IMG/VR virus record: IMGVR_UViG_3300020159_001897
Coordinates: 2,399-66,398 of that record
From: a virus
Reading direction: 5' to 3' (one strand)
Length of the DNA stretch: 64,000 nt
The notes below the pieces were generated by a model. The model had not been told where the DNA came from. It was given only the letters and a program-made list of their open reading frames with translations, and ran no database searches. Shown piece by piece: positions 9,883-56,556 of this stretch; within the stretch, counting starts at the first letter, position 1, and every line of letters begins with the position of its first letter. The position numbers and the translations under genes were made by a program.

Positions 9883-10548
9883 TTAGGAAAGAAAGGCTTT
9901 TCCAGAGAATGCGCTGGTAAACGATACTGTCAGGCTGTTCTCGTTTATATAGGTAACTTCGCCAATCACATGAGAAAGAGCCGAGTCGACAATTGACACA
10001 TTCGGGTAAAATTTAAGATTATGAGTTATCGACCAGGTAGTAGCGGCTGCTCCCTGCGTATGCACATACTTGGATTTTGCTCTAACCTCTTCTATCGCCC
10101 CCTGAACCGTAGTTGAGGTTATTTCGCTGGTTGGAGTAAATGAAATAGTACTTGCCCCACCAATTCTGCTATCGACATATTCCTTTGTCGCGTAGTTATA
10201 GGTGACTATTGGTTCTGTATTTGGAACAACATCAGCCAGGTTAAATCTTCCGTTTAGAGAGTTGCTATTTAGGGTAAAAAAGTACTTGTTATACCCAGTT
10301 TCGTTTAGGCGCTCATTTACCTCATAGGTGACACCGTCTGGCTGTGTCGTAGCGTCATCGTTTGCATATAGATTAATCGAGATTGAGCCACTGTTATCAA
10401 GGGCAACAACTTGCTCTTGCGGCGTAATCGTTACATCTGTGCTGGCATCCCGCATTGGGGCGGTAAGCGTGAACGAGACTGAGCCACTTGCGGGCGCGCC
10501 AGTAGGAAGTAGGTATGTGCCAGAAACGGTTATGAGTGTAAAAGCCAT
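9883..10548 (-). CDS. Virion structural protein, baseplate/fibre-adaptor-like
   Basis: Position in the module, YATKEYVD motif, C-terminal W.ITHNL...P.V.IVD domain. Confidence 0.55.
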   Translation of the reverse strand: MAFTLITVSGTYLLPTGAPASGSVSFTLTAPMRDASTDVTITPQEQVVALDNSGSISINLYANDDATTQPDGVTYEVNERLNETGYNKYFFTLNSNSLNGRFNLADVVPNTEPIVTYNYATKEYVDSRIGGASTISFTPTSEITSTTVQGAIEEVRAKSKYVHTQGAAATTWSITHNLKFYPNVSIVDSALSHVIGEVTYINENSLTVSFTSAFSGKAFLS

Positions 10549-10550
10549 GA

Positions 10551-10937
10551 TTACGCCTTCTGGAATACATCAAGCGTTAGCGCATGATGAACAACATTGT
10601 CCTCTAATGATACTATCCTTTGGATATCAGAAACTCTCAGCCTGTAGATGTAAACATCTGAGTCAAACTGCCCAAGTCCATCCAATGCTGTGACCATTGA
10701 GTCGATAAGTGATGTATTTTCTGAAGCCCTATCTTGCCATAAATCAAACTGAACCATCCTGCGACGGGTTTTTACTAAACCGTCACCGATTATTTCTGGC
10801 ACATTTCTTAATTCATCGCTGTATGTAATATATGGTTTTGCCGTATTTGGTGGAGCAAAATCACGGAAGATACCAGTAATGCCAGCAAGGTTTGCTGCAA
10901 GCAAGCGGGTACGAATTGAACCTCCAACTGAAGCCAT
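10551..10937 (-). CDS. Tail terminator / tail completion protein (DUF3168-like)
   Basis: APPNTAKPYITY and VQFDLW motifs; follows the gp10-like gene. Confidence 0.7.
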   Translation of the reverse strand: MASVGGSIRTRLLAANLAGITGIFRDFAPPNTAKPYITYSDELRNVPEIIGDGLVKTRRRMVQFDLWQDRASENTSLIDSMVTALDGLGQFDSDVYIYRLRVSDIQRIVSLEDNVVHHALTLDVFQKA

Positions 10938-10939
10938 AA

Positions 10940-11443
10940 CTATTCACCGACCTTAATTGTTACATTCAATGGCTTCATGCCCTTAAACCTCTTGTACATA
11001 TAGTAAGTAAAAGCATTAGCAACTGTTTTCCTGGCTCCTAAAGCAATATTTTCTCGTGCTGGTCTGGCAAATGGCCTTGGCGCCATGCGCTCAGTTCCAT
11101 ACTCAAGAAATCTTGCATACTTTAACTTTGAGCCGAAAACTGCTCGTGCTGGGTTATCTCCAACCTTGCTCAATGTTTGTGAATATATAGATTTATACAA
11201 TGGTCCGCTTGGGTCGGCAGAAGGTGGTTCCCCAGGCTGACTGGACATTCTCTGTTTTTTATTGCTTCCGTATGTTTTATATGAACCAGGATGATTAATA
11301 ATCTTTTTTATTTCTTGCTCACCCTGTCGAGCAAGTTCTTGAGCAGTATAAAAGTTTCCAGCGATACCAGCATTAATTGCGCTTGCAATCCTTTTATCGA
11401 CCTGAGACATCAGGTTATCAATCGATTTCATTCTCTTACTCAT
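10940..11443 (-). CDS. HK97 gp10-like tail component
   Basis: SQPGEPP...G.L..SI and YARFLEYGTERMAPRPF.RPA motifs. Confidence 0.85.
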   Translation of the reverse strand: MSKRMKSIDNLMSQVDKRIASAINAGIAGNFYTAQELARQGEQEIKKIINHPGSYKTYGSNKKQRMSSQPGEPPSADPSGPLYKSIYSQTLSKVGDNPARAVFGSKLKYARFLEYGTERMAPRPFARPARENIALGARKTVANAFTYYMYKRFKGMKPLNVTIKVGE

Positions 11444-16916: not shown

Positions 16917-19581
16917 CTGTTTTCTCCGTGATAGATAGTGGCTCACTAATGAGGCCTTTTTGCATCATAACATTATCAATGTACCCATCTGACTTTAGTT
17001 CAGGTGGCTTCTTGCCGAAGTCACGGTAGTGACGGGCGAGATGATTGTACACAGCCTTGCGGTCTTCTCCGCGAAGTATCGTTCCACCGCGTCCACCGTT
17101 GAGGATTGCCATTTCAGATTTCAACTCTGAGTATGCGGCAGCGCCAGGTTGGCCATCTTCAGAAACATGGTGATGGATAAATGTGTAATGGGTCTTGCGG
17201 GTTCCATCTGTTCCAGGAGTATGGTAAGCAAAAATCTTCTTGTAATACGATGGGTCTTCTGGCGAGCGTGTATTCAGGATTGCTGAACGGTCAAGAGTCT
17301 CGTCGTCGCGAACTGGCGTTTTATGCGAAGGCACTGGACCACCAGCGGCTTTAACTTCAAGGCCAGCATCTTCACTTAGTGGCTTAGTAATAATCCCTTT
17401 TTGAATCATCACATAGTCAACAAATTCATCTGACTTAAGTTCTGGTGGCTCTTTACCAGCATCACGGTAGTGTGCAGCGATGTGGTTATAAACACCACGA
17501 CGGGCCTCTCCGCGCAATACGGTTCCAGAGCGACCACCATTCAAAACAGCCATCGAATTGACAAGGGCTGAGTATGATGCTTCGCCAGGTGTGCCATCGG
17601 CATTTACATAATGGTGGATAAAATTGTAATGAGTCTTGCGGTCTCCAACTGTATTTGGATTTTGGAATGCAAAGATTCTGTTGTAGTAAGAGGGTGTCGA
17701 TGGTGATTTCATGTTTCGATACGGGACTGTTTTATCCCATGCTCGTGACATGTTTACGGCAGTTTCATGTGTTGCGATAACGCGACCATTTGGACCAGCC
17801 TCTTTAACTTCTTCATCAATTTCTGCAGATTTCATTCCAGCAGTTTCTTCGGTGCGCATCTTTGGTTCGCCCAAAAGTTCTTCGCGGATAATCCACAACT
17901 TGCAAATTGCTTCTGGCTCAATGCTTCCAGAAACAATTTCACACTTTTTCCCACCCTCAAAGAAGACACAGTTAGAACACTTCATGCCTTCTGAAGCAAA
18001 TGGATTCTCTTCCATGTAGTGAGCGCCATTAGCGCCATTTCCTTGGTCCCACATACCGAATTCTTCGGCCATAGTTTCAAAAAGGTCATACATAGTAAAC
18101 TGGCGTGGGTTAAGGCCCATTTCTTGCTGTTCGGCAAGACCCTCAACCATGTCGTCTTGATGTGGAACAACTTCTGGACCCTGCATTTCTTCGTGCATAT
18201 ACTTTTCGTCTTGCATTGCTGCATTTAGCGCTGCAAGGTGTGCTTGCGCTTCGCCAAGAGTAAGGTGGCATCCGCCTGAAACCATTCCTTCTCCGACCTT
18301 AACAACCGCATAACCATTGCATCCCTGAACATCTTGTTCAATGCTGTAAGGCTTTTCCTCTGGTTTGCTTGGGCTTGTTCCAATTCTTTGTGGGGTACCA
18401 AAAGAACCTGGAGTTCCTGACGGCAAGTCAGTGTAAACATCTTTCTTTGGAGCATCAATTTTGGATAGCGTAGAAAACTTATGTCCTACTCTTACTTCTG
18501 TTGGAGAGTACGACAATCCTTCTTTGCGGTATACGCGAATAAGTGCTGCTGGGTCGTCTGGAGTGCCAGTAATAGTAAAACTGCTATCTGGAACATTTAT
18601 CTTCCCATTGCGTTCTACTCGCTCAATTCGACCGTAGGCACGACCTCCAGATGAACGCCAAGAAACAAAGTCACCAGTTTTTAAAGCATCTGGCGCAGCC
18701 TTCATCTCGTCGCGTGAATTCATCGCGTCAACAAGTTTTTGCGACCAGCGCCATCCTTCGTTGCCTCCCCAAAGTTTCCAAGCAATAAGTCCTGCGCCTG
18801 GATATCCATCTGCGCCTGGTTTGCTATTTGATGGAGTCTTAAGGTCTACCGCATGGCGCGGGAAGTAGCGCGCAATGTGGCGAGCCTTCTCTGGGCTAAC
18901 AGTAGAATTGTTGAGTAGGTAATTAGCCGTAGCCTTGCCGACCTGAGTTCCGCCTCTGTTAAATTCTTTCGACCACCCGAGACCAATCTCTGCCTGCTTT
19001 TTGACACCAGAAGGAATGCTGAAATTGATATCGTCATACTTGCCAGGAGCCTTTGCTTCAATTTCGACTCCATCCTCTTTCAGGCTTAGTGTTCGGGTGC
19101 TTGGGGCGGCACCAAAAATTACTGGGGAGTACTCAAACAATTCCAATTGCTTGATGTAGCGGATTCCAGTTTTCGAGTCAACCGTATATTTGCCCTCTGG
19201 AACGGCATAGCCAATTGACCATTCCTGCTCTGGCCCAAAGAACTGGACATCAAAAAATGCATCGCGACCGCGGCTGGTGTTTAGGTTGAACTGCATTTTT
19301 ACAAGCAGAGCGCCAGCGTTTTGCTGAATAAGGTCATTCGGTAGGCGTGGGTCATTAGGAAGAAGTTCTTCAACGCGGAGGGTTTTGCCAACTGGGATAT
19401 TCGTATCGTGAGACCATACGACTTTTGGGTTGCGCTTTTTTAGCGTTAATTTATAAGCGCCTGGCTCAATTACATCGTTTACGGAGTCGACAATATTGGT
19501 AACGGAGACAATTGCCTCAACGATTCCATCCACATCATCAATGCCACGAACTGATGAAACTGATACTTGTTTGTGTTCCAA
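16903..19581 (-). CDS. HK97-family prohead protease with a long multidomain extension
   Basis: D...D.I.PGAY, WSHD...PVG, WSIGY and L.EYSPV.FGA motifs, then ~700 aa of extra domains. TTG start behind GGAGG. Confidence 0.9.
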   Translation of the reverse strand: MEHKQVSVSSVRGIDDVDGIVEAIVSVTNIVDSVNDVIEPGAYKLTLKKRNPKVVWSHDTNIPVGKTLRVEELLPNDPRLPNDLIQQNAGALLVKMQFNLNTSRGRDAFFDVQFFGPEQEWSIGYAVPEGKYTVDSKTGIRYIKQLELFEYSPVIFGAAPSTRTLSLKEDGVEIEAKAPGKYDDINFSIPSGVKKQAEIGLGWSKEFNRGGTQVGKATANYLLNNSTVSPEKARHIARYFPRHAVDLKTPSNSKPGADGYPGAGLIAWKLWGGNEGWRWSQKLVDAMNSRDEMKAAPDALKTGDFVSWRSSGGRAYGRIERVERNGKINVPDSSFTITGTPDDPAALIRVYRKEGLSYSPTEVRVGHKFSTLSKIDAPKKDVYTDLPSGTPGSFGTPQRIGTSPSKPEEKPYSIEQDVQGCNGYAVVKVGEGMVSGGCHLTLGEAQAHLAALNAAMQDEKYMHEEMQGPEVVPHQDDMVEGLAEQQEMGLNPRQFTMYDLFETMAEEFGMWDQGNGANGAHYMEENPFASEGMKCSNCVFFEGGKKCEIVSGSIEPEAICKLWIIREELLGEPKMRTEETAGMKSAEIDEEVKEAGPNGRVIATHETAVNMSRAWDKTVPYRNMKSPSTPSYYNRIFAFQNPNTVGDRKTHYNFIHHYVNADGTPGEASYSALVNSMAVLNGGRSGTVLRGEARRGVYNHIAAHYRDAGKEPPELKSDEFVDYVMIQKGIITKPLSEDAGLEVKAAGGPVPSHKTPVRDDETLDRSAILNTRSPEDPSYYKKIFAYHTPGTDGTRKTHYTFIHHHVSEDGQPGAAAYSELKSEMAILNGGRGGTILRGEDRKAVYNHLARHYRDFGKKPPELKSDGYIDNVMMQKGLISEPLSITEKTDEQD

Positions 19582-33990: not shown

Positions 33991-34178
33991 TGTGGATAAC
34001 TTGCGAGGCTGTGGATAACTCAACCACTGAGAGTGTGATATATCAGCGCCGTGATATGTCGGTGATATATCAGCGGGGTTTGGGTGTCGCCGTGCGCGCG
34101 GGCGCGCCCGTGCCCCTGCGCGAAGAAAATGGTGTTCCAGACTGAATGATTTTATTTTGCGCTTCCGTTTCCTCGGGC
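33991..34178 (+). promoter_or_regulatory. Island: two DnaA boxes, two TGATATATCA palindromes, tripartite motif copy 1
   Basis: TGTGGATAA (33991, 34010); TGATATATCA (34036, 34063); GAAAATGGT-N13-TGATTTTATTT-N8-CGTTTCC (34125). Confidence 0.8.
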
Positions 34179-34595
34179 CATGTGTGCCCGCGCGCCCGTT
34201 TTGAGATTGCCCGCCGCCCTTGCGCCCTTGGCTCGACCCTCTGCGCCCTCACGCCAACGCCAGCACCCCGCGCCGCCTTTTTAGCGGAGCCTCTGCCCGC
34301 CGCCCCTGCCCTCCTCCTTCGGGGGTGTTGCTCGACGCCCTGGCGCCCTTGTTAGCCCTAGGCGCGCCCTGGGCTTCACAACTAAGCCCTAGGCGCGCCC
34401 TGGTGCGTCCTCGCGCCTACTTGCGCCCGCGTGCCCACAATACAAGCGCCACGATTAGGACGCTTGCGGTAGACACTGCAACGGCAGTACTCGCGTTGTA
34501 TATGTCAAGTGTTATCTGCATTTTTCTCCCTTCATTGGTATAAGTATATTATAGCACGCCCGCCAAGTATTTGCAACTTGACGGGCGAACTATTT

Positions 34596-34889: not shown

Positions 34890-35014
34890 TGTGTGTTCCC
34901 TTCATTAGGTTGGTTGTTACTAATACCATTATAGCATATCAAGTCGCGCACGACAACCCCAAATAATTATATCTTCGGGTTGCCAAATATGCGATAGTGT
35001 GCTATACTGTATAT

Positions 35015-35164
35015 ATGAACAACACACACAACTCACTCGCCAAGTGCGAGGGTGCGGACTGCACCAACCTAACCGACATCGTCCTCTGCGATACCTGCAC
35101 CGAGGACTACCTCTACGACTACGAACTCGCTCGCGAGGATAGGGCGGAGGCGCGGTTGCGCTGA
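35015..35164 (+). CDS. Small leaderless zinc-finger protein (49 aa)
   Basis: TTGCCA-N17-TATACT-N6-ATG; CEGADC...CDTC; GC hairpin after the stop. Confidence 0.7.
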   Translation: MNNTHNSLAKCEGADCTNLTDIVLCDTCTEDYLYDYELAREDRAEARLR

Positions 35165-35680
35165 CGCCAACGGCGGGCGGGGCGTGAGCCTCGCCAACCC
35201 GCGCGCCCTCCTCCCGTGATATATCAACGGCATATCACCAAACCCGCAACCCTCCTTCGCCCTGGCGCGAGCAAGCCCTCGGATAAGCCCTCAGTTAGAC
35301 AATTATTTGCGCGCTCAACACGGAGCCCTGGGTGAGCCCTCGCGACAACCCTGGGTGTGTGCGCCCGTGTCCCTCTGTGTTTTTTCTGAACGCCAACCCC
35401 GCGCGCCCTCCTGCGGATACGCCAACGCCACGCCCTGGCCCTCCTCCTTGCGGAGCCCTGGCGTGCCCTTGCGCCACCCTCGGGTGAGCCCTGGAGTGCG
35501 AAGCCCGCGCGCCTCTCCTCGGCTCTCTCCCTCGGTTGCTAGAACCTGCCTGCCCGTAGTCCCGCGAGCAAGTGTGCGATGGTCATCATCAGTCTCATTT
35601 GGTTTCCTTCCATTAGGTTATGTATATATTATAGCACGCCCCGCGAGCCTATGCAACCCGCGGGGCGACTATTTTCTAAA

Positions 35681-35923: not shown

Positions 35924-36261
35924 TGAGTTGCCTTCCGTTCGGGGCTCGCTGGTTGCTTGCCCTTGTAATAATAGTATAGCATACTATGCCACACAATGCA
36001 ACCCAAACGGGCAGATTTTTCTAAACTATTTTGCCCTCAACGAGACGCGCCCTGGCGCCCCTCCTGCGGTGCAAGCCCTCGAACAAGCCCTCAGTTGGAC
36101 AATCCCTCGCGCTCACGCCCTGGAGCCCGTGGTGAGCCCTGGGTATCCCGCGGGGGTTGGTCGCAAAACTGCAGGGCAAGCCCTCCTGCGATTTCGTCCC
36201 CTGTTCAGGTATGCAGAAGCCCGCCCAGCGGGGGGGCTGGGCGGGCTCTGTGTTGGTCTTG

Positions 36262-37241: not shown

Positions 37242-37884
37242 AAATACAGTATAGCACACTCTGTCACGCTTCGCAACTTATTTCTATATATTTTCGCTCG
37301 CCACCCTTGCGCGCCCTGCGCCACCCTGGCGCCCTCGCTTCCCGTGATAAGCCCTCAGTTAGACATTTTTTTCCACTCACTCCCTGGAGCCCTGGGACAC
37401 GGCTAATAGCCCGCGGGGTCGCCACTCCCGCGGGCTTGCGCCTTGCTTACTAGCCCTTAGTGAGGCACGCCGTTCCAGTATGGGCGTGGCTCTGAAGGCT
37501 CGTCGTACTCGTCATAACCCTCTGCTTCCAGCAATTCGTCTTCCCACCCTGGCTTCCACCCGTGGTCCAAGTCACCGTAGTTTGACATTTTGTTTCCTTT
37601 CGTTTGGTTGGTATATACAGTATAGCACTTTGTAGCACGATACGCAAATTATTCTTAGATATTTTTACCCGCGCCCTTAGCGTCCCTTGCGCCCGCGCGC
37701 CCTCGGACAAACCCTCAGTCTCGCAATTTGTTTTGCTGTCGCCCTGGAGCCCTGGGAACGCCCTGGGGCTAACCCTCGCGTTGGTCGCCCGCGTGCTCAA
37801 ACCCACCAGCCTCCGCCCGTGGGCGGGTACGCCAAAACCCAACCCGCGGGGGTGCGGGCTGGGTTGGCTCGGACTGGCTGCCGT

Positions 37885-38142: not shown

Positions 38143-38576
38143 ATTTCCCTTTCGCATAGGTACTTCGTTTTCCCTATATATATACTATAGCACACTCTGT
38201 CACACAACACAACCTAAAATAGAATTATTTTGGATATTCTTTTGATATATCACCGCCCTCGGCGTGGGCGAACAAGTGTTTGGGGGTCGGTTGCCGCGAT
38301 ATGCGCCCTCGTGCGATATTGTGCGAGTAAAAGTAAAATAAGCCCTCAGTCACGCAAAGTCCCGCGCGCCTCCCTCGGTGCGCCCTGGAGCGTCTAGCGA
38401 GCCCTCACGGCTTGGTCGGCGAACGCCAAAAAGTGACCCTGGCGCCCTCCCTCCCCGTGATATATCAAAGGAATATCAGTTTTTGACTTGACAAACTACC
38501 CTTGCGTAGCCTCTGCCCGCGGGGCAGGTACGCCAAAGCCCGCCCCGCGGGGGGGCGGGGCGGGCTCTCGGTCGTT

Positions 38577-39446: not shown

Positions 39447-39665
39447 TTTTCCACAGACTTATCCACAGGCTGTGGATAACTTGCCCGCGGGGCTGTGGAT
39501 AACCCGCGCGCCCTGGCGCCCTCAGCCCCAGACCCTCAACCTCTACTTGAGGGTTAGGGTTTGTCTCAGACCGAACATATGTTCGCCCTTGGCCCCTCTC
39601 CGCCCTCGGAGAAAATGGTGTTCCATTTGTCTTGATTTTATTTTGCGCATCGTTTCCCTTGGGCC
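39447..39665 (+). promoter_or_regulatory. Island: DnaA-box cluster, FtsR-like site, LexA box, tripartite motif copy 2
   Basis: TTTTCCACA 39447, TTATCCACA 39459, TGTGGATAA 39471 and 39494; GACCCTCAACCTCTACTTGAGGGTT 39531; CGAACATATGTTCG 39572; motif at 39611. Confidence 0.8.
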
Positions 39666-40446: not shown

Positions 40447-40521
40447 AAATAAAAATGTCCCCTCTCCGCCCTTCGGCGGGTTAGTTGCCCGCGGGCGCTT
40501 CTCGTCCCGCGGGCTACTCCT

Positions 40522-41526: not shown

Positions 41527-41851
41527 TTTGTTTCCTTTCATTGAGTTGGTACTAGGTGGCGCCGACGCTTACGACACTCTTACTCGGTTATCATTGCGAA
41601 CCTAGTAATACTATTATAGCATAGCCCGCGAGGCTTTGCAACCCCGCGGGCTAAGTTTTTTACCAGCCGTAACGCTCGGCGTCTTTTTCGGCTTGCACTT
41701 CCGCCTCAAACTCTCGGCGCTGAGATGCCGTTGCTGGCATTCCCCAACCCTCAAGGTAGGCGTCTTTGGCGGCGTCGTGCCCGTCGTCGCTGTCTCTGTA
41801 TCTTGGGTTCATTTTTTCTCCTTGTGTTTGTAACTTACTATTATATTATAC

Positions 41852-41893
41852 CATAGCCTGCGAGGCTTTGCAACCTCGCAGGCTAAGTTTTTT
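41852..41893 (-). repeat. 42-bp promoter-in-hairpin repeat (exact copies at 41852, 42587 and 43186)
   Basis: CATAGCCTGCGAGGCTTTGCAACCTCGCAGGCTAAGTTTTTT; on the minus strand TTGCAA-N17-TATAAT, with the -35 in the hairpin loop. Confidence 0.9.
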
Positions 41894-42480: not shown

Positions 42481-42632
42481 ACTCAAAGCCAAACCCTGGC
42501 GCCCTCAGCCCCCGCCGAACACCTTCTCCCCTCTTTCCGTGCCCCCGCTGGCACTGCTCGTCTATTTCCTTATATATATATTATAGCATAGCCTGCGAGG
42601 CTTTGCAACCTCGCAGGCTAAGTTTTTTATAT

Positions 42633-42824: not shown

Positions 42825-42907
42825 TTTGTTCTCCCTTGTTGGTTTGTATCTTACTACTATATTATATCATAGCGGGCAGGGTTTCGCAACCCCACCCGCC
42901 AGATTTC

Positions 42908-43138: not shown

Positions 43139-43226
43139 TGGTTTTGCCTTTCGTTTGTTGGGTTGTTCTTACTATTATATTATACCATAGCCTGCGAGGC
43201 TTTGCAACCTCGCAGGCTAAGTTTTT

Positions 43227-43993: not shown

Positions 43994-44236
43994 TTAGAAT
44001 ATCGGGGTGACTTCCCGACACTCGTAGAATGGCTTGATGGAATTGTTTAGGTAGAAACCGAAACTGTCGGTGCCAACCATTTTCTCAATGTCGCCAAACG
44101 GAACGTCTAGGTAGTCGTAAACCTTGCCCGAATGAAACTCAATGGTTAGAGTTCCCATTCCGTAGCGGTCGGCTTCGCCTTCCCACTTGACTACCCGTAC
44201 TGCTTGACTTCCGATATCTGTAATTCGGATTTTCAT
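43994..44236 (-). CDS. KTSC-domain protein
   Basis: L.IEF.SG.VY.Y..VP........S.G.Y.N..IK..Y. Confidence 0.8.
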   Translation of the reverse strand: MKIRITDIGSQAVRVVKWEGEADRYGMGTLTIEFHSGKVYDYLDVPFGDIEKMVGTDSFGFYLNNSIKPFYECREVTPIF

Positions 44237-44378
44237 TTTGTTACCTTTCTTGTTGAGTTACTAACATTGTACCCAAAGGGTGTTACAGAGTTTCTAACCC
44301 GCTAGAACCTCATATATAAATTATCCCACAGTTCGGGGTCTGTGTCAAATCAAACTGCCACATTATCTGATATTCCTC

Positions 44379-44505
44379 TGATATATCACGGCGAGGTTAC
44401 TGGCTGGTAAGCGAACACTTGTTCGCCCTCACCCTGGCCCCTCTCCGTGAGAAAATGGTAAGAATAACTAAATGATTTTATTTAGTGCGCTCCGTTTCCT
44501 CGGGC
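44379..44505 (+). promoter_or_regulatory. Island: TGATATATCA, LexA box, tripartite motif copy 3
   Basis: TGATATATCA 44379; CGAACACTTGTTCG 44412; motif at 44451. Confidence 0.8.
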
Positions 44506-44560
44506 TGGGTGGCAAGGGCGGGTAGGGAAGAAAGGAATAAGTCCCTACCCGCACCAAACT

Positions 44561-44938
44561 TTATGCGTACTCGGGTTCGTCCGCTTGCTCCACTGTCACT
44601 CGACAGCCCATCGGGCAATCGTGGTGCGATAGTCTCGCTTCGAGCGCATTGGTCTCGTCGTCGAATTCCCATCGCAGAATGAATTGACCATCCACAGACA
44701 TTGCACGCACTAAGTCTTGGGCAGTTTCGCACTTGGCAATTCCGCCGACCGTGCTATCCCATAAGCGAATGCCGCTTACCTTGAAGTACTCGGTACTCTT
44801 CAGTAATGGCTCCACCACTTGACCGAAGTCTTCAAGTGCATACTCGTAGCAAGTGCCGTCGCAGTATTCATTGTAGAACTCCACTCCGTCTTCGTCCACG
44901 CAGGCGCAGTTGGTTGTAATCTCTCCGCTTAGTTTCAT
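44561..44938 (-). CDS. Hypothetical protein with C.C...C...C and SHHD.P.G motifs
   Basis: GAGG RBS before MKLSG. Confidence 0.7.
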   Translation of the reverse strand: MKLSGEITTNCACVDEDGVEFYNEYCDGTCYEYALEDFGQVVEPLLKSTEYFKVSGIRLWDSTVGGIAKCETAQDLVRAMSVDGQFILRWEFDDETNALEARLSHHDCPMGCRVTVEQADEPEYA

Positions 44939-45099
44939 TGTGCCTCGCAGTCGTGCCCGTAAGCGTATTCCTCTGCAGGAATTTGACTGTCGCATTCTAC
45001 GCAGTGAATTGTTATGTCCATTAGTTTCTCCTTTGTTGGGTTGATATATATATTATACCACTTTGTTGGCTTACTTGCAACTTATTCCTGGATTTGTTT

Positions 45100-45195
45100 T
45101 GCGGAATAGTCGGTGGGGGCGCGAGCGAAAGGTAGCCCGCAGCCCCCACCTCTACCGCGAGCCCAGAAAGGGGGTAAGGGGCTCAAGCAAGCAGT
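45100..45195 (-). ncRNA. Candidate ~95-nt sRNA with two anti-Shine-Dalgarno-like loops
   Basis: Perfect TTGACA-N17-TATAAT (45230-45202); no ORF; hairpin loops CUUACCCCCUUUCU and UACCUUUC. Confidence 0.7.
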
Positions 45196-45272
45196 GATAT
45201 AATTATATCATTTTGTTGCTGTCTTGTCAAGGTGGGATAGAGCACTTCTCGTCTCTACCCCACCAAGATTTG

Positions 45273-45695
45273 TTAGAGGTACTGTGATACCGATTTCATT
45301 GTTGAGGCGTTCACATACTCTTGGTCTGTCATTCGCAATAAACGAAGGGCGTTGTTGATTTCCTCAACTTCGTCCTTGTAAATACGCTCGTGATAGTTGG
45401 ACTTGTTTTCAGGTTCTTTTGGAACAAGCGACTTAGGAACTTTGATGGTTACAGAGATTTCTTGCTCTGCGTCATTCTTTTGATGCCAACGCTCGTAGGT
45501 CGTTACTTCAGTTACTTTTGCCTTTGGCGACTTTGCCAACCTAAAAAGTTCATCTCTGTGCTTTGCCATTTCCTTGTCAAAGTCCACTTGTGCCTTTTCG
45601 CTGTCAGCGAACTTCTTATCGCGGATTTTGAGGGCTTCCTCAAGAGCCTTGATGACCTTAGTGGTCTGTACTTTTACTGCCATTTGCTTACTCAT
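45273..45695 (-). CDS. Conserved actinophage-type hypothetical protein
   Basis: VKV.T.KVI.ALE...EEI.NALR.L.M...E.V.AST...V..YL; AAGGAG RBS. Confidence 0.75.
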   Translation of the reverse strand: MSKQMAVKVQTTKVIKALEEALKIRDKKFADSEKAQVDFDKEMAKHRDELFRLAKSPKAKVTEVTTYERWHQKNDAEQEISVTIKVPKSLVPKEPENKSNYHERIYKDEVEEINNALRLLRMTDQEYVNASTMKSVSQYL

Positions 45696-45954
45696 TATGT
45701 TTTCTCCTTTGTTGGTTTGTTTGGTTTTTCCTTGCTATTACATTATACACTGTTGTAGCATATAAAGCAACTTCATTTACTTATTTTTTTTGCTTAGTAC
45801 CGCTAATGCGTAGCCCGCAAGTAGCCCGTGGACTACCCCGATTGCGAACCCTAAAAAGTACATAGTTGTCCCCTCTCCGCCTTGCGGTTTGTTTATCTTG
45901 CTCTTATATTATATCATAGTCGGGCAAGTCTTGCAACCTGCCCGACTAGATTTT

Positions 45955-46380
45955 TCAGACGAACAATGACTGAACTGCGTCAGCCAGACTGCCCGTTGCT
46001 TGACCTTCGTCAAAGATAGGGTTTGCCCAGTCATCTGTGAAGCGAAGTACGCTTGCTGTTTCGCCAGCCTTTGCCACTACGAGCAAGCGAACACGCCTGC
46101 GCTGTGAGTGCTGTGAAGGTGCTACGCCTGCTTCAGGGTCATCAGCGTCTGTTATTGGCGCTGCCCAACCGCTAGTGCGAACTACGACTGCGTCTGACAA
46201 CATAGCAACGGCTTGCGCCTCTACACTGTCAAGCATTTCGTACACATCACCGTGTTCTGCCACGAGCATTGTGTTTTCGCCTCGGACTGAATACAGTCCT
46301 GCTGTTTTGATTTCTGTACTCTCAATTCCGAACATATCCATATTATCTACATATTCGGCAATTTGTAATGCTGTACTCAT
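45955..46380 (-). CDS. Hypothetical early protein
   Basis: GWAAP...PSQH..RRRVRL motif; AAGGAG RBS. Confidence 0.75.
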   Translation of the reverse strand: MSTALQIAEYVDNMDMFGIESTEIKTAGLYSVRGENTMLVAEHGDVYEMLDSVEAQAVAMLSDAVVVRTSGWAAPITDADDPEAGVAPSQHSQRRRVRLLVVAKAGETASVLRFTDDWANPIFDEGQATGSLADAVQSLFV

Positions 46381-46456
46381 TTGATTATCTCCTTTGTTAG
46401 TTTGGTTTATCCTTGCCATTATATTATAGCAGGTTGTTGTATGAAACACAACCCAC

Positions 46457-46685
46457 TAAGCAATTCTCAACAGAACTCGTCAGTCCCCACATATTTACTG
46501 CCGTTGCACCAGCAGAGGGCTTCGCAGTGACTTTCTAATCCGACAGAGGTTGCTCGCGCAGGAGGGAGTGCCAAGCCCTACAGGGACTTCCTAGGAAAGT
46601 GTGAGGGGCTATCGTGCTATCGCTGGGATACAAAACTTGATGCGGTGAGAAGTATGTCCACCTATGTGTTGTCAAGAATTACTTA
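46457..46685 (-). ncRNA. Candidate ~230-nt structured ncRNA
   Basis: Own promoter (46719-46747); no ORF; 16-bp closing stem with three G-U pairs; internal hairpins. Confidence 0.65.
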
Positions 46686-46851
46686 CTGTGTTGTGTTCCT
46701 TTCATTTGGTATATATCCATTATAGCAGGTTGTATCACTAAACACAACCTCATTTGTAAATAATCGGTGGGATACTTTGGCTACAACCGACTTGGCACGC
46801 GGCCCTCTATGTTGCGCGGTTTCTCCCACCGACTACATCTATTGTATCAGA

Positions 46852-47022
46852 TTATGCCGATACCGTCAAGTCAAGACGCTTGTCGTGGATTTGTTCCGCA
46901 AGCGACTTGGCTGTCCAGCGCAACCTCTGCTGTACATCATCTTTTCCGATGAAGTCTTGCGTCCCGTTCATCTCCTCAATGATTACGAGAAGTTCTTTTA
47001 GCAATTCAATTTTTTGTTTCAT
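46852..47022 (-). CDS. Small early protein
   Basis: GAAGGA RBS before MKQKIE; own promoter. Confidence 0.6.
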   Translation of the reverse strand: MKQKIELLKELLVIIEEMNGTQDFIGKDDVQQRLRWTAKSLAEQIHDKRLDLTVSA

Positions 47023-47109
47023 TGTGTTCCTTCCGTTGTGGTTGTTCCTTACCCTATAAATTATACACCCAGTGTGCGATAATAGCAACCCTATTTTATA
47101 ATATATTGC

Positions 47110-47275
47110 TGATATATCACAGTGACCCGTGCGCCCTGGCCCCCACGCCTAAACCTAAAGTAGAGGTTGAGGGTTTATCTCAGGTAGAGGTTGAGGGTTA
47201 TATATGCCCCTCTCCGTAGAGAAAATGGTAAGAAGAACTGATTGATTTTATTTCGCGCTACCGTTTCCCTTGGGC
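47110..47275 (+). promoter_or_regulatory. Island: TGATATATCA, two tandem FtsR-like sites, tripartite motif copy 4
   Basis: TGATATATCA 47110; AAACCTAAAGTAGAGGTTGAGGGTT 47151 and a variant at 47175; motif at 47221. Confidence 0.8.
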
Positions 47276-47481
47276 TACTCGAGCCCGCGCCACGCAGTTG
47301 CTGAACGACGCGCCAGCCTCGCAGTAAAGCAAGGGAATGGTGTGCCGCAGTAAATGCAGTGTGGGTCTTTCCCGCCATCTGTTGAGTGCGGTGCCGACAT
47401 CATATGAATCGTTGACTGCAGTCTGTTGATTACAATGTCTCTTGGGTCTACTTCAATATAATTTTCTTCGTTGTCTTCCAT
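47275..47481 (-). CDS. Small zinc-finger protein
   Basis: H...CIYCG.PFPC; AGGAG RBS. Confidence 0.65.
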   Translation of the reverse strand: MEDNEENYIEVDPRDIVINRLQSTIHMMSAPHSTDGGKDPHCIYCGTPFPCFTARLARRSATAWRGLE

Positions 47482-47508
47482 TTGTCTCCTAGTTGGAATG
47501 TGATGGGG

Positions 47509-48132
47509 CTATTGCCCCACCATCACTTCCATTGTCGCTTCGTGTAGTGCGCTTTCAAGTGCTTCGTACACTTCTTCCATCGCTTGGTCGTGCTTCTCCA
47601 TTGAGGCATCATCGTCCCAGTCGTATTCGGGCAGATTATTTAGGCTTATACTATTTTCAGAAATCTCTTCTCCGCCTTTGTATAATTCCCAGCCAGCAAA
47701 ACCCATTCCCTCTTCGGTGTACCAAACGCCAAATGCAAGCGTAGGGAATTGCGCCGAGATGCGCTGAATGAGACCACGAGCAGGCGACCAAGCCGACTGA
47801 TAGGCGAATGTAATGTCGTGGTAGTCCTCTTTGTCAAGAACTTCGTGCCACGCTCCATTCGGTTGAATGTCGTATGCGCCCCATTTAGTTCCCCACACAT
47901 CTATTGCGTTCTGATAGCCGTCAAAGCCATCTTCTGCATTTGAGAATGCGCTGAAAACTTGCTCAGTGCCGTCTTCTTTTTCCCAGCGAACTTCTTTGCT
48001 TGCTCGTGGGTCTAGCGGTACGAGTTTGTTGAAGTTGTAATCGTTTCCGCCTTCGTGGGTTTCCGAGACAAAACGCCTTAGTTCCTTTTTGTCTCCTGTA
48101 ATTGTAAGTCTATTATCGCAATGATTTGGCAT
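47509..48132 (-). CDS. DUF1281/YubB-like protein (ferredoxin-like fold)
   Basis: MPN.C.N.L.I, WGTKW, SAWSP and Y.EEG..FAG motifs. Confidence 0.8.
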   Translation of the reverse strand: MPNHCDNRLTITGDKKELRRFVSETHEGGNDYNFNKLVPLDPRASKEVRWEKEDGTEQVFSAFSNAEDGFDGYQNAIDVWGTKWGAYDIQPNGAWHEVLDKEDYHDITFAYQSAWSPARGLIQRISAQFPTLAFGVWYTEEGMGFAGWELYKGGEEISENSISLNNLPEYDWDDDASMEKHDQAMEEVYEALESALHEATMEVMVGQ

Positions 48133-48318
48133 TAGTTTCTCCTTTGTTGGTTTATGTTATATTCTATTATACCAGTTCTACTGATGTTTCGCAACTCATT
48201 AGGCAAAGTCTTATGTCTAATAGTAAGTCGGTCATTTCAGCAGACGATACAAGTGATTGCCCCGCTATTTTTTGTATTGCTCCATCTACAAGTTGAGTCG
48301 CTTGCACTAAGGATTCGT

Positions 48319-48522
48319 TCACGAATATTCTCCTATGTCTAGAAATCCCGTGCCGTTACCCTCGGGGTCAGCCATAACAATAGCGTATGTGTCGTCAGTG
48401 AATTCAAGTACGGCAGTTGGGTTGCTATTTTTATACCAACCGAGTTGTTCGTACTCCTCGTCCCCCAGGCTCCGCACCCCCGCGATTGTTTTTCCGATAA
48501 GTGTTTCTGCGTAGTGGCTCAT
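48319..48522 (-). CDS. Hypothetical protein
   Basis: L.GKTI..V...D.EGNG.G motif; coupled to the upstream gene. Confidence 0.65.
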   Translation of the reverse strand: MSHYAETLIGKTIAGVRSLGDEEYEQLGWYKNSNPTAVLEFTDDTYAIVMADPEGNGTGFLDIGEYS

Positions 48523-48782
48523 AGGGCTATCTCCATCTTTACTGGTGCTGATGCGAGCAACTCTGCATAGACGGGTGAGGCGTATGCTTCGCCGTCTTTG
48601 GTGATGGTGAACACTGGCTCCCAAAAGTTGCCACTGCGAACCCTTGCGCTCAGTTCTGTGCCCTCTTTCCAGTTCTTGGTGACGAACTCAACTGCCTCTA
48701 CGACATCGTAGAACCACTCCTCGCGCGCCATTGTCAAGACCACGCGAATTGCTGGTGAGCCGTACATTCTTGGTTTTCTCAT
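48519..48782 (-). CDS. Hypothetical early protein
   Basis: AAGGAG RBS; own promoter. Confidence 0.65.
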   Translation of the reverse strand: MRKPRMYGSPAIRVVLTMAREEWFYDVVEAVEFVTKNWKEGTELSARVRSGNFWEPVFTITKDGEAYASPVYAELLASAPVKMEIAL

Positions 48783-48955
48783 TGGTTTCTCCTTTGTTGT
48801 CATTGGGTATGTATATATTATATCAGGTTGTGCAGGCGATTGCAACCTCTGCTAAAAGATTTTATTTCGCCGTCCCCTACCCCTGCCGCATTTTTTCAAA
48901 TTTGGCGGGCGGGCTATCGGGCCCGACAGTTTCCCATCGGGCCCGACCGCTAGTG

Positions 48956-49996
48956 CTACAGGCTCGCTAGAGCCTGCAACACTTTCGTATCTGCCGTACC
49001 AGTAGAACCGCTAAGAGCGTTGAGCATATTGCGCTCTACTCGGTTCTTGTCAGTGCCAGCCTTGTGATGGTTGTAGGTGTTGTAAGCCTGCAACACTCCC
49101 AACGCTGAACCCTTCCACGGTGCTACTCGCATATCGTTAGCGTAGAGGTCTTTCAACGCCCAACGCTTATTCTCTGCACGAGTGATTGCCGTCTTCATTT
49201 CAAGGTCGGTCGGTACTGGTACTAACTGGTTGAGCAGTGTGTTCCACTGTTCGTCCGTTACTTTCCATTCCGACAACTTTGTAATCTCTGCGATTACATC
49301 GTCAGTCATTTTGTGAATAATTCCAAGCGCATCACGAGCCGATTGAATTTTCAATGCGCTGTGCTTTGAGTGGCGAGCCTTGAATTGCTCTCCATCTTCG
49401 CCCATCGCCATTGAGTGTGTGTTGTCGCAGACCACGAAGGTAGAAACCTTCTTGTAGGTCGTTGCCAATGTCCCAATGTGGCTAGTTGTTGCAAGTAAGT
49501 GCGGACGAACCTTGAAGCCGTCAATGACTTCAATGCTTTCGGGCATTTCAAGCGACACCCAAGCAACTCCGCCATTCTTCAACAAGCCTGCAGAACCGAT
49601 TGCCAACTCGTCATCTACGAGGTTTGCGAGGTTCTTTACGAGCCAGTCGTTGTACTGGTGGATTGCGTAGCCATCTTTGAAGATTTCAAACAGGTCGTTT
49701 GTGTCATCTCGCAGGATTGCTTTACGGTTTTCAGCCTTGATGAACTTGACGGGATTTCCGTTTTCGTCCACGCTGGTTGCATCGTCCATCGTTGCTGGCA
49801 CTTGAATGAACACTGGGGCTTCTTGTGCCGACCAAGCGAACAGCCTGCGCTGTACATCTTCAACAGGGATTGCTCCTGCATAATGGTTCGGCTCATCGCC
49901 TTGTGCATCTTTCTTGTAGTGCCACGCATTTCCACGCTGGTCGGTCATACCAACCAAAATCTGCGTGTTGTACCACTCGGTAGTTTCCATTCCCAT
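48956..49996 (-). CDS. DUF932 / TIGR03299-family phage-plasmid protein
   Basis: AWH, SAG.L..G...W, LL..TSH.G, VVCDNT and G...G..QA motifs. Confidence 0.85.
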   Translation of the reverse strand: MGMETTEWYNTQILVGMTDQRGNAWHYKKDAQGDEPNHYAGAIPVEDVQRRLFAWSAQEAPVFIQVPATMDDATSVDENGNPVKFIKAENRKAILRDDTNDLFEIFKDGYAIHQYNDWLVKNLANLVDDELAIGSAGLLKNGGVAWVSLEMPESIEVIDGFKVRPHLLATTSHIGTLATTYKKVSTFVVCDNTHSMAMGEDGEQFKARHSKHSALKIQSARDALGIIHKMTDDVIAEITKLSEWKVTDEQWNTLLNQLVPVPTDLEMKTAITRAENKRWALKDLYANDMRVAPWKGSALGVLQAYNTYNHHKAGTDKNRVERNMLNALSGSTGTADTKVLQALASL

Positions 49997-50169
49997 TTTA
50001 TTGCTCCTTTGTTAGTTTGTTGTTTGATTACTTACTGATACTATTGTATCACTTTATCGCAGGCTTTGCAACCCGTACAGAAGGTTTTTTTTATTTCTTC
50101 TCGATAACTTGATAATTCAATTCTATCGGGACATTGCCAAAACACCAACCTCAAAATAAAATTATCGGG

Positions 50170-50307
50170 TGATATATCACGGCTTAGTGCTAAATAGACC
50201 CGCGCGTCCCCTGTGGTTATTGTCTTTCAACTGTTTTGTTCCCTGCCCGAGGAAAATGGTGTTCCAGAGTAATTGATTTTATTTTCGCACTCCGTTTCCC
50301 TTGGGGC
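50170..50307 (+). promoter_or_regulatory. Island: TGATATATCA and tripartite motif copy 5
   Basis: TGATATATCA 50170; motif at 50252. Confidence 0.8.
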
Positions 50308-50324
50308 TGGTGCCCTGGCGCACA

Positions 50325-50369
50325 AATAAAAAAGACCCAGCCTAGTAATGGGGGTGACTAGGCTGGGCC
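50325..50369 (-). terminator. Intrinsic terminator with an oligo-C loop
   Basis: 13-bp stem, loop CACCCCCAUU, then a U-tract. Confidence 0.8.
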
Positions 50370-50411
50370 GCGCAGATGGCTCACAAAGGAGATTAAGGAG
50401 CCATCGCGAAC

Positions 50412-51101: not shown

Positions 51102-51226
51102 GGTTAAGGTGTGGTTAAGGGACGGTTATATGTACGGTTATGGGTGACAGTATGCCACCCCTAGAGGTGACAAATTGCCACTGGGGGGTGACAGTATGCC
51201 ACTAGGGGGGTGTCAGGATGTCACCT
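51102..51226. repeat. Iteron-like array: four ~22-bp units plus four phased GGTTA
   Basis: GTG(A/T)CA-N3-TG(C/T)CAC at 51144, 51167, 51188 and 51210. Confidence 0.8.
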
Positions 51227-51587
51227 CAGAGTCGCCTTCATCTTCTTCAAAATGCTTTGAACTTCCGCTATTCAAGAGCCTTTGTGCCCTTAAAATAAGA
51301 CTTCGTTCACGGGCTGACTTGCCACCCCATATTCCGAATCGTTCTGATGACTCTAATGCTGATTCTAAACAATCGTGTCTTACCACGCACTCCTTGCAAA
51401 TGCTTTTGGCGCGCCTTAACTTCTCTACATCGCCAGGGGCGGGATAGAAAGTAGTTGTCGGTTCATCTTTGCAGTTAGCCTGCTTTGTCCATGCTGGTCG
51501 TTCGATACGGAAACCCGTACCTGACTCCCACTCTGTTTGGGCATAGCGTTGCTTGGGCGCACGGTAAGAATCCCAAGGGCTAGACAT
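51213..51587 (-). CDS. whiB: WhiB-family Fe-S transcription regulator
   Basis: W...A.C, AK.IC..C.V...CL..AL and GIWGG.S..ER motifs. Confidence 0.92.
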   Translation of the reverse strand: MSSPWDSYRAPKQRYAQTEWESGTGFRIERPAWTKQANCKDEPTTTFYPAPGDVEKLRRAKSICKECVVRHDCLESALESSERFGIWGGKSARERSLILRAQRLLNSGSSKHFEEDEGDSEVTS

Positions 51588-54132: not shown

Positions 54133-54202
54133 TAGGTTCTCCTTTGTAATTGCGTTACTTCAAGTATACACGAATATTGCACAAAGCGGGCGGATTTGTT
54201 TG

Positions 54203-54324
54203 TGATATATCAGACGGTAAAATAAAAGAACACCACATCTACTGGGTGGGTTGTCCCCTCTCCAGCGAGAATATGGTGTTCCAAAACGAATGATTTTATT
54301 TAGTGCTGCCGTTTCCCTCGGGCC
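54203..54324 (+). promoter_or_regulatory. Island: TGATATATCA and tripartite motif copy 6
   Basis: TGATATATCA 54203; GAATATGGT-N13-TGATTTTATTT-N8-CGTTTCC at 54269. Confidence 0.8.
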
Positions 54325-56056: not shown

Positions 56057-56358
56057 ATTTCTCCATTATGTTAGGTCTCCGAGTGTACAGGTTGCATCTT
56101 TCTGTCACAACCTGCTATCCGTAATATATCAGAGATTCCCGTAGAACTCACTAAAACTATTCCAGTTTTCGTCGTCCTCTTGGTCGAGTCCGTTCTTTAG
56201 ACACCAGTAGGCATATGCATCCATTTTTAATTTCATTTCAGCAACTGCTTCTGGCGAAACATTAAACATAACTATATCCATTATTCACCTCCTTCATTGG
56301 GTTGACTTCAGTATACCAGCCCAATCGCACATTCACAACATTGTGCGTAATATTTCGG

Positions 56359-56556
56359 TGATATATCACAGACTATAATATTAAATAAATGCGCTTTGCC
56401 CACCGTCTGGATAGATTTGTCCCCTGCACCCTGAGAAAATGGTGTTCCAGATGCCATGATTTAATTTTGCTTTTTCTGGCTTTAATCTGGGGGCGGCCGA
56501 AGAAAATGGTGTTCCATCGGCTGTGATTTAATTTACTCGCCGCCCGTTTCCTTAGA
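56359..56556 (+). promoter_or_regulatory. Last island: TGATATATCA and tandem tripartite motif copies 7 (partial) and 8
   Basis: TGATATATCA 56359; motifs at 56435 and 56502. Confidence 0.8.

Follow-up and report, generated by a model that had tools for sequence, protein, structure and literature searches.

A conserved family of phage RNA hairpins whose loops resemble the anti-Shine-Dalgarno tail of 16S rRNA

We observed that a 64,000-nt stretch of viral DNA, taken from IMG/VR record IMGVR_UViG_3300020159_001897, carries on its minus strand a family of RNA hairpins whose C/U-rich loops repeat the 3' tail of actinobacterial 16S rRNA and complement the Shine-Dalgarno (SD) regions of the phage's own early genes. 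This stretch, called the window throughout, comprises bases 2399-66398 of a 66.4-kb viral contig with a completeness estimate of 59%. Two of the hairpins form a 95-nt element lacking an open reading frame (ORF), which we call module I, and the others lie just past stop codons. The loops are the conserved part of the family and the stems around them vary. With a probability of about 0.55, we read these elements as phage RNAs whose loops would pair with SD regions and depress translation, module I in trans and the hairpins in 3' untranslated regions (UTRs) possibly in cis or in trans.

Minus-strand hairpins with anti-SD-like loops

A first-pass annotation of this DNA had described four minus-strand hairpins, two of them behind stop codons and two in an ORF-less transcript. 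All four were recovered at the same coordinates and in the same settings by a mechanical hairpin scan of the minus strand. The elements are as follows.

44518-44552, minus strand: hairpin 1, an 11-bp stem with loop CTTATTCCTTTCT (equal to CUUAUUCCUUUCU), in the 3' UTR 8 nt past the TAA of a 125-aa gene.
45106-45200, minus strand: module I, an ORF-less RNA of two hairpins, 95 nt, matched by covariance model R1 at 114.7 bits.
45152-45194, minus strand: hairpin A, loop-bearing part 45158-45185, loop CTTACCCCCTTTCT (feature-list form CUUACCCCCUUUCU).
45112-45150, minus strand: hairpin B, a 9-bp outer and a 6-bp inner stem, loop UACCUUUC.
45230-45202, minus strand: putative promoter P1, TTGACA-17-TATAAT with an upstream TG, 12/12 consensus positions, kept in all relatives that have module I.
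45080-45052, minus strand: putative promoter P2, TTGCAA-17-TATAAT with TG, 10/12, between the two-hairpin RNA and the next gene.
50375-50405, minus strand: hairpin 4, loop CTTAATCTCCTTTGT (equal to CUUAAUCUCCUUUGU), in the 3' UTR 6 nt past a stop codon.
50323-50369, minus strand: intrinsic terminator, a 13-bp hairpin, loop CACCCCCAUU (C-rich), with a U-run behind it.

P1 stops ~7 nt before the first stem of module I and putatively drives the two-hairpin RNA; the lower stem of hairpin A begins ~1-2 nt past the predicted +1, and its upper stem is GAGCCC/GGGCTC. Within hairpin B, an inner part at 45120-45141 with loop TACCTTTC is nested in the 45112-45150 stem. The terminator hairpin behind hairpin 4 (50334-50369, then TTTTTT) was seen by eye, since its 10-nt loop exceeds the limit of the scan. 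None of hairpins 1, A, B and 4 has the direct U-run that, together with a hairpin, makes a Rho-independent terminator, and a minus-strand terminator scan of 44200-45800 found none.

As a chance control, we counted hairpins with a stem of at least 6 bp and at least 4 G-C pairs that carry CCTTT in the loop. There were five on the minus strand, four of them those already described, and none on the plus strand under the same criteria. Among 200 dinucleotide-shuffled versions, which averaged 0.97 such hairpins, two had four or more. Alone, this control lends modest support; what decides the matter is that the family is conserved in relatives.

The loops are conserved and the stems vary

Relatives were obtained by protein-anchored searches, which yielded two viral contigs (~89% and ~79% nucleotide identity) and 15 metagenome loci. 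Module I was present in nine loci, amounting to eight distinct sequences. Single-sequence folding gave the two hairpins in all eight, with minimum free energies (MFEs) of -44 to -52 kcal/mol and z-scores of -5.3 to -6.7 against mononucleotide shuffles; the copy in the window has an MFE of -48.3 kcal/mol and z = -5.7. The covariance model R1, trained on six close sequences, also matched the remaining two, which are divergent, with scores of 38.4 and 36.3 bits.

We counted base pairs on the covariance-model alignment, as MAFFT misaligned the two divergent sequences. An alignment fitted to the model makes the counts lean towards the structure; the independent single-sequence folds agree with them. 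Across the eight distinct sequences, 11 of 28 pairs changed on both sides, and 99.1% of 217 cells were standard pairs, with 16 G.U cells and at most two unpaired. None of 500 shuffles reached either the number of double-sided changes or the paired fraction, and sliding the 3' partner by 1-3 columns lowered pairing to 40-50%. The loop cores did not change: CCCCUUU in hairpin A and CCUUUC in hairpin B were invariant in all eight, while the flank in hairpin B read UA, UU, UUU, UAUU or UAAU. Hairpin B had double-sided changes in 9 of its 15 pairs, and the hairpin A stem in two lineages was GAGGC(T)/(A)GCCTC. Loop and stem lengths varied by 1-5 nt among relatives, so the two-hairpin stretch holds no conserved reading frame.

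Hairpin 1 occurs with three covarying stems (GTAGGGA, GCAGAGA and GTAGAGA, each with matching 3' changes), and in a contig from an RNA library 44526 G>A is matched by 44544 C>T on the pairing side. At locus L038 its stem is replaced by the unrelated CTATCT/AGATAG around the unchanged loop CTATTCCTTTCT. The loop core of hairpin 4, TTAATCTCCTTT, was kept in all four loci where it was compared (the window, L009, L035 and L038). In L038 the terminator also has a wholly different stem (CCAGCCGCGGAG/CTCCGCGGCTGG) and a loop, TTCACCCCCGTTTC, that is still of the CACCCCC type. Of all sense-strand CCTTT occurrences in the loci of close relatives, most fall inside these loops: 4/5 in L038, 4/7 in L035, 3/6 in L033, 3/5 in L036, 3/6 in L037 and 2/2 in L034.

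Between hairpin B and P2, several relatives carry a short hydrophobic ORF of ~19-24 codons (L009 ~10880-11000, L033 ~1600-1690, L037, L038 ~6590-6650 and L041 ~1290-1400). Its three differences between L033 and L037 are all synonymous; it is missing from the window, L034, L035 and L036.

Transcribed strand and expression

The 16 G.U cells of module I would be A.C on the other strand; together with the minus-strand promoter, they identify the minus strand as that of the functional RNA. A promoter scan of the plus strand across 44200-45800 found none, and transcription from the plus strand, which had been named as grounds for rejecting the idea, is therefore disfavoured. The related genome G002 has an extra member, loop CTATTCCCCCCTTT, encoded on the other DNA strand; it comes after a small plus-strand gene and is again in sense orientation.

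Contigs from four metatranscriptome runs, each from a different study, fall on the stretch at 85-99% identity; parts left uncovered in runs X16, X17 and X20 carry no meaning. One such contig, of 266 nt, covers 45051-45303. Another stops inside hairpin B and continues as a variant with the minus-strand loop TATTCCTTTC.

The phage and its probable host

Most genes in the window are on the minus strand. PHROG matches recognised terminase, portal, major head, protease and tail proteins, and the closest cultured relatives at the protein level are actinophages of Gordonia, Rhodococcus, Streptomyces and Microbacterium (40-46% identity); against cultured-phage records, neither megablast nor blastn gave a nucleotide match to the query DNA. 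The gene at 51213-51587 encodes a WhiB-family protein (PF02467, 72.6 bits). Among its best 80 genomic homologues, 79 have Actinomycetota-type titles, including two metagenome-assembled genomes (MAGs) of Candidatus Nanopelagicales, and one is labelled Campylobacter. DNA runs containing the stretch are labelled as freshwater, lake and some marine metagenomes. The taxonomy of the WhiB homologues and the freshwater labels make a freshwater actinobacterium the likely host, in agreement with the actinobacterial host assumed at the outset.

Loops match the 16S tail and early ribosome-binding sites

In the five host-candidate MAGs taken first, the 3' end of 16S was missing; we therefore sampled 41 genomes of the order to which one WhiB-bearing Nanopelagicales MAG belongs. 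Full-length 16S genes were present in 16 of the 41, and the eight inspected all terminate in GGATCACCTCCTTTCT. The loops share 6-8 nt with this tail, as had been proposed: UCCUUUCU in hairpin 1, CCUUUCU in hairpin A, CUCCUUU in hairpin 4 and CCUUUC in hairpin B. The DNA beyond the tail (L130-L137) reads CTCCTTTCTAAGGAG, or CTCCTTTCTAAGGGG in one of eight; in precursor 16S, the anti-SD is predicted from sequence to be able to pair with a downstream AAGGAG.

The early genes (~33-56 kb, minus strand) share unusually stereotyped AAAGG-centred initiation regions, CAACAAAGGAGAAACTAATG and also CGAAAGGAAAC with the ATG 3-4 nt further on, and the small genes among them often have individual promoters. 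The form ACAAAGGAGAAAC predominates at 45-54 kb, and (C/U)GAAAGG(A/G)AAC at 34-44 kb. Structural genes have ordinary, varied SDs without this pattern. Every ribosome-binding site (RBS) string listed as a loop complement in the first-pass annotation is present. ACAAAGGAGA stands upstream of the starts at 45695, 46380, 48132, 48782, 51020, 52416, 53260, 53815 and 54132, and also of 45021; GAAAGGTA upstream of 44236; GAAAGGAA upstream of 38801, 41526 and 43436; and GAAAGGG upstream of 38142 and 43911. One of these sites is the closest candidate for a target in cis of transcripts from P1:

45027-45036, minus strand: early class I RBS example, ACAAAGGAGA, in front of the gene whose start is 45021.

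We assessed pairing as predicted duplex energies between each loop and the translation initiation regions (TIRs) of 38 early and 25 late genes. The loop of hairpin 4 is predicted to bind class I RBSs at -14.4 kcal/mol, compared to -9.2 for the 16S-tail string, and reaches -8 kcal/mol or lower in 22 of 38 early versus 10 of 25 late TIRs. Predicted values were ~-10.3 kcal/mol for hairpin 1 on GAAAGGAA sites, -11.7 for hairpin A on GAAAGGG sites and -9.5 for hairpin B on the 44236 site. Averaged over the 38 early TIRs, only hairpin 4 showed a clear excess (-9.70 versus -6.04 for shuffled loops, sd 1.06), and hairpin 1 was marginal (-7.47 versus -6.20, sd 0.88). The more distant phage L042 has TGAAAGGGG RBSs, and its post-stop hairpin loop CACCCCTTTCA is their 9-nt complement. 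A search for kissing partners gave no convincing set of SD sequences displayed in hairpin loops.

Further C-rich loops

Three more single hairpins in the window have runs of C in the loop.

38535-38568, minus strand: C-rich-loop hairpin, loop CCCCCC, stem 8 nt past the stop of gene 38801-38577.
37836-37865, minus strand: C-rich-loop hairpin after a stop codon, loop ACCCCC; counterpart in related genome G001 at 18181-18211, loop ACCCCCC.
36217-36248, minus strand: C-rich-loop hairpin after a stop codon, loop CCCCCC.

Hairpins similar to the last one occur in G001 (19315-19346, loop ACCCCC) and, on another stem, in G002 (10215-10251, loop ACCCCCC). Because the genomes are related, counts of C-rich loops across the window, G001 and G002 are not independent. 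Among sense-strand hairpins of the window with a stem of at least 7 bp, 13 carry C/U-rich, anti-SD-like 5-mers in the loop (2 of the 13 being alternative registers of hairpins already counted), compared to 5 with the complementary purine-rich 5-mers.

Interpretation and alternative explanations

Our preferred reading is that stable G+C-rich stems would present single-stranded C/U-rich loops with the cores CCUUUC, CCCCUUU or CUCCUUU. Copying the very end of the 3' tail of 16S rRNA in actinobacteria, these cores should be able to pair with AAAGG-centred SDs. Module I would be expressed from its own strong, early promoter as an RNA with two anti-SD loops; the remaining loops would act from 3' UTRs just past stop codons, one of them ahead of a terminator with a C-rich loop. 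Pairing between loop and SD would compete with the 30S subunit and might result in less translation, and perhaps less stability, of SD-led mRNAs. The targets could be phage early mRNAs, host mRNAs or both.

Several observations weigh against this reading. Module I and the early genes that it would repress have promoters of one class, which is not easily reconciled with a shut-off role. Because neither a U-run nor a scanned terminator follows hairpin B, module I may form the 5' leader of transcripts from P1 instead of a free small RNA (sRNA); the sequence is compatible with either. The RNA-library contigs give a weak hint of transcription, being assemblies without strand, end or level information in which DNA carry-over is possible. 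Module I is carried by only about three sequence lineages, and R1 found none in 13 more distant loci that encode a homologue of the flanking 140-aa protein (L028-L032, L039, L040 and L042-L047; weak matches at E 0.36-5.2 were left unused). An exact-pattern scan of viral contigs for the core between the hairpins returned just the two relatives already known. Changes in the hairpin 4 stem are one-sided only and lend it no compensatory support.

The pairing predictions add to these objections. Over early TIRs, the loops of hairpin A (-6.56 versus -6.66), hairpin B (-5.12 versus -4.29, sd 1.05) and the terminator (-3.14 versus -4.54) did no better than shuffles, and the L038 version of the hairpin 4 loop no longer has the G opposite the C of ACAAAGG. 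The free variation of loop flanks speaks against the proposal that each loop fits a specific class of RBS. The match of hairpin B to gene 44236 (TACCTTTC with GAAAGGTA) does not covary: across six relatives, the hairpin B flank showed no co-variation with the RBS of the downstream KTSC-domain gene, the 44236 homologue. In L036, L009 and L038 this homologue keeps the GAAAGGTA RBS, yet the hairpin B loop is TTTCCTTTC or TATTCCTTTC; in L033 and L035 the homologue has a ACAAAGGAGA RBS. Given the lack of flank covariation and the match in L042, the data favour a generic recognition of SD cores (AAAGG or G-rich) and give no more than a hint that loops track the consensus of their own phage.

A broader version of SD pairing, which we consider tentative and on balance unlikely, is that a lytic-type actinophage uses mimics of the 16S tail, on a two-loop RNA and many early 3' ends, to titrate SDs throughout the cell and reprogram initiation. 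If so, the mRNAs silenced might be the early ones of the phage, in which case the RNA would parallel T4 RegA, or SD-led ones of the host; leaderless messages such as the candidate at 35015 (+), described below, would be spared. Little is known of how sRNAs act in Actinobacteria, where leaderless and SD-led translation exist side by side. Masking of SDs in this setting would amount to a chaperone-free, RNA-only tuning of translation by a phage. The small size of module I and its clear stem and loop predictions make this directly testable, and the finding offers a handle on the stereotyped AAAGG-centred initiation regions of this phage group.

An alternative that we rate as improbable is that the loops are recognition sites for a phage or host RNA-binding protein or ribonuclease, serving stabilisation, processing or translational control, and that their likeness to 16S is incidental. 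A short invariant core such as CCUUUC with free flanks and stems is typical of protein-binding hairpins, and the lack of covariation in gene-specific complementarity would be expected. The phage also has a second hairpin family with covarying stems and the conserved purine-rich loop ACGAGAAGYG, so that not all of its conserved-loop hairpins are anti-SD-like. However, a Pfam scan of 56 proteins revealed no candidate RNA-binding domain, and the flanking 140-aa and 125-aa proteins had no match. Moreover, the core varies (CCUUUC, CCCCUUU, CUCCUUU, CCCCCC) and always remains complementary to purine-rich SDs, a pattern more easily explained by nucleic-acid pairing than by one protein site. Members of the purine-rich-loop family, ACGAGAAG(T/C)G, lie at 45231-45264 and 40487-40514, with counterparts in L009, L041 and L042; they are placed past a stop codon and ahead of the next -35 box.

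It is considerably less probable that the hairpins are mere terminators, attenuators or stabilisers of 3' and 5' ends with functionless loops. That hairpins 1 and 4, like the three C6-loop hairpins, sit directly past stop codons would suit such a role, and hairpin A, lying where the P1 transcript is predicted to begin, occupies the classic position of a stabiliser. The loops, however, are the most conserved part and recur on unrelated stems, U-runs are missing from hairpins 1, A, B and 4, and the separate canonical terminator behind hairpin 4 means that hairpin 4 is not needed for termination.

We give still less credence to the idea that the loops are decoys of the 16S 3' tail, titrating a factor that acts on it, for example an anti-SD-clipping host endoribonuclease of a defence or toxin-antitoxin system, and so shielding ribosomes in infection. 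Some MazF-type toxins do cleave UCCUU-like sites, the anti-SD included, and besides the 6-8 nt shared with the tail, the loops of L042, L041 and the terminator open with CACC as the tail does. On the other side, nothing found points to a tail-acting factor, the UCCUU string is missing from some loops (UACCUUUC, CCCCCUUUC), and the real tail is a single-stranded 3' end and not a loop. Finally, a functional plus strand, on which the loops read AGAAAGGAATAAG and ACAAAGGAGATTAAG and contain GGA as in CsrA/RsmA-titrating RNAs, is scarcely credible: the G.U cells would become A.C mismatches, the consensus promoter lies directly upstream on the minus strand, the opposite-strand member in G002 follows the sense of the gene before it, the window's four loops include two (GAAAGGTA, AGAAAGGGGGTAAG) that have no GGA when read on the plus strand, and Actinobacteria are not known to have CsrA.

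Other repeats and signals in the window

A candidate leaderless gene lies at 34979-35164 (+), with the divergent promoter TTGCCA-17-TATACT and an ATG 7 nt past the -10 box (35015). It encodes a 49-aa Cys-rich protein, has CCCTCCTCCC in its 3' region and has counterparts in G001 and G002; the one in G002 is followed by the hairpin with loop CTATTCCCCCCTTT.

We also noted a repeat of ~69 nt in eight copies (34111-34179, 39593-39660, 44437-44505, 47207-47275, 50238-50306, 54255-54323, 56417-56467 and 56498-56534), which on the minus strand reads ..RAGGGAAACGG-N-AGCGC-N-AAATAAAATCA-N10-GGAACACCATTTTCTC.. and directly follows hairpin 1 and the hairpin 4 terminator. As a structured RNA it was rejected: RNAalifold gave -1.4 kcal/mol and no compensatory pairs for six of the eight copies, and a DNA-level signal, such as a phage-specific promoter or protein site, is therefore more likely. 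About 50 nt beyond most copies are TGATATATCA palindromes. Paired palindromes of this type, operator-like in appearance, stand upstream of several early promoters, with sites at 34050-34072, 35215-35237, 38456-38478, 44366-44388, 47097-47119, 54190-54212 and 56346-56368. Another family consists of 12-13-bp hairpins with differing stems, whose loop (TGCAAA, TGCAAG or similar) contains the early-promoter -35 TTGCAA and which have TATAAT just 3' of the stem (41622-41653, 41854-41885, 42589-42620, 42870-42901, 43188-43219, 45917-45948, 34557-34587 and 35637-35667).

Comparison with known RNAs

sRNAs with anti-SD loops are already known from bacterial chromosomes (6C, CcsR, RsaE and others). In open-access papers and preprints, the scope of our literature search, we found no phage-encoded hairpin family with anti-SD loops. 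Rfam at gathering thresholds and ARAGORN gave zero matches across the whole window. Module I also differs from CsrA/RsmA-titrating RNAs in that its minus-strand loops are pyrimidine-rich and contain no GGA.

In Firmicutes, the sRNAs with UCCC or C-rich loops (RsaE/RoxS, LhrC and the 3' hairpins of RNAIII) have C/U-rich loops, terminator loops included, that pair with SDs, and in icaR a 3'-UTR anti-SD motif pairs with the SD of its own mRNA. The phage elements are similar in kind; sequence families and hosts are distinct. T4 RegA is a protein repressor that shuts off many early genes through a common feature of their initiation regions. The outcome would match if the phage RNAs target their own early mRNAs; the analogy is functional only, as the effector here would be an RNA.

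Closer in architecture are the CcsR1-4 or 'cuckoo' RNAs of Alphaproteobacteria, which comprise two hairpins each with CCUCCUCCC anti-SD loops, some being cut from a 3' UTR (PMC8034643). Module I likewise is an adjacent pair of covarying hairpins, each with an anti-SD loop (CUUACCCCCUUUCU and UACCUUUC), and in both systems copies lie in or derive from the UTRs of neighbouring genes. In a permissive scan of 1051 nt with CcsR1 (RF02791), 45108-45195 aligned end to end (1-83 of 83) at 24.3 bits and E = 0.002, well short of the gathering score of 65.3. The CcsR loop motif CCUCCUCCC is missing from both loops in all eight distinct sequences, which have CCCCCUUUC/CCUUUC instead; DUF1127, the genomic context of CcsR CIN1, was not found among the 56 proteins scanned; and the element is phage-encoded in an actinobacterial setting.

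The second comparison is with 6C, called B11 in mycobacteria, which comes from the same phylum and has the same two-hairpin layout. Its C-rich loops bind the purine-rich RBSs of panD and dnaB without a chaperone, and growth halts upon overexpression (PMC6486639). In the candidate host order, 6C was above the family cut-off in 7 of 41 genomes and at E <= 0.001 in 11 of 41, and eight folded examples consist of two adjacent hairpins with C-rich loops. The three separate single hairpins with CCCCCC or ACCCCC loops add to the likeness. Module I itself differs in having loops that mix C and U around a CCUUUC core; their runs of C measure 4-5 nt in loop A and 2 nt in loop B, compared to runs of at least 6 in 6C. 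The 6C model (RF01066) had zero matches at E <= 10 in the window stretch, and R1 matched none of the 11 6C loci. In conclusion, the layout is alike, yet the covariance models reject membership; on present evidence the phage element therefore appears to work like CcsR and 6C while belonging to neither family.

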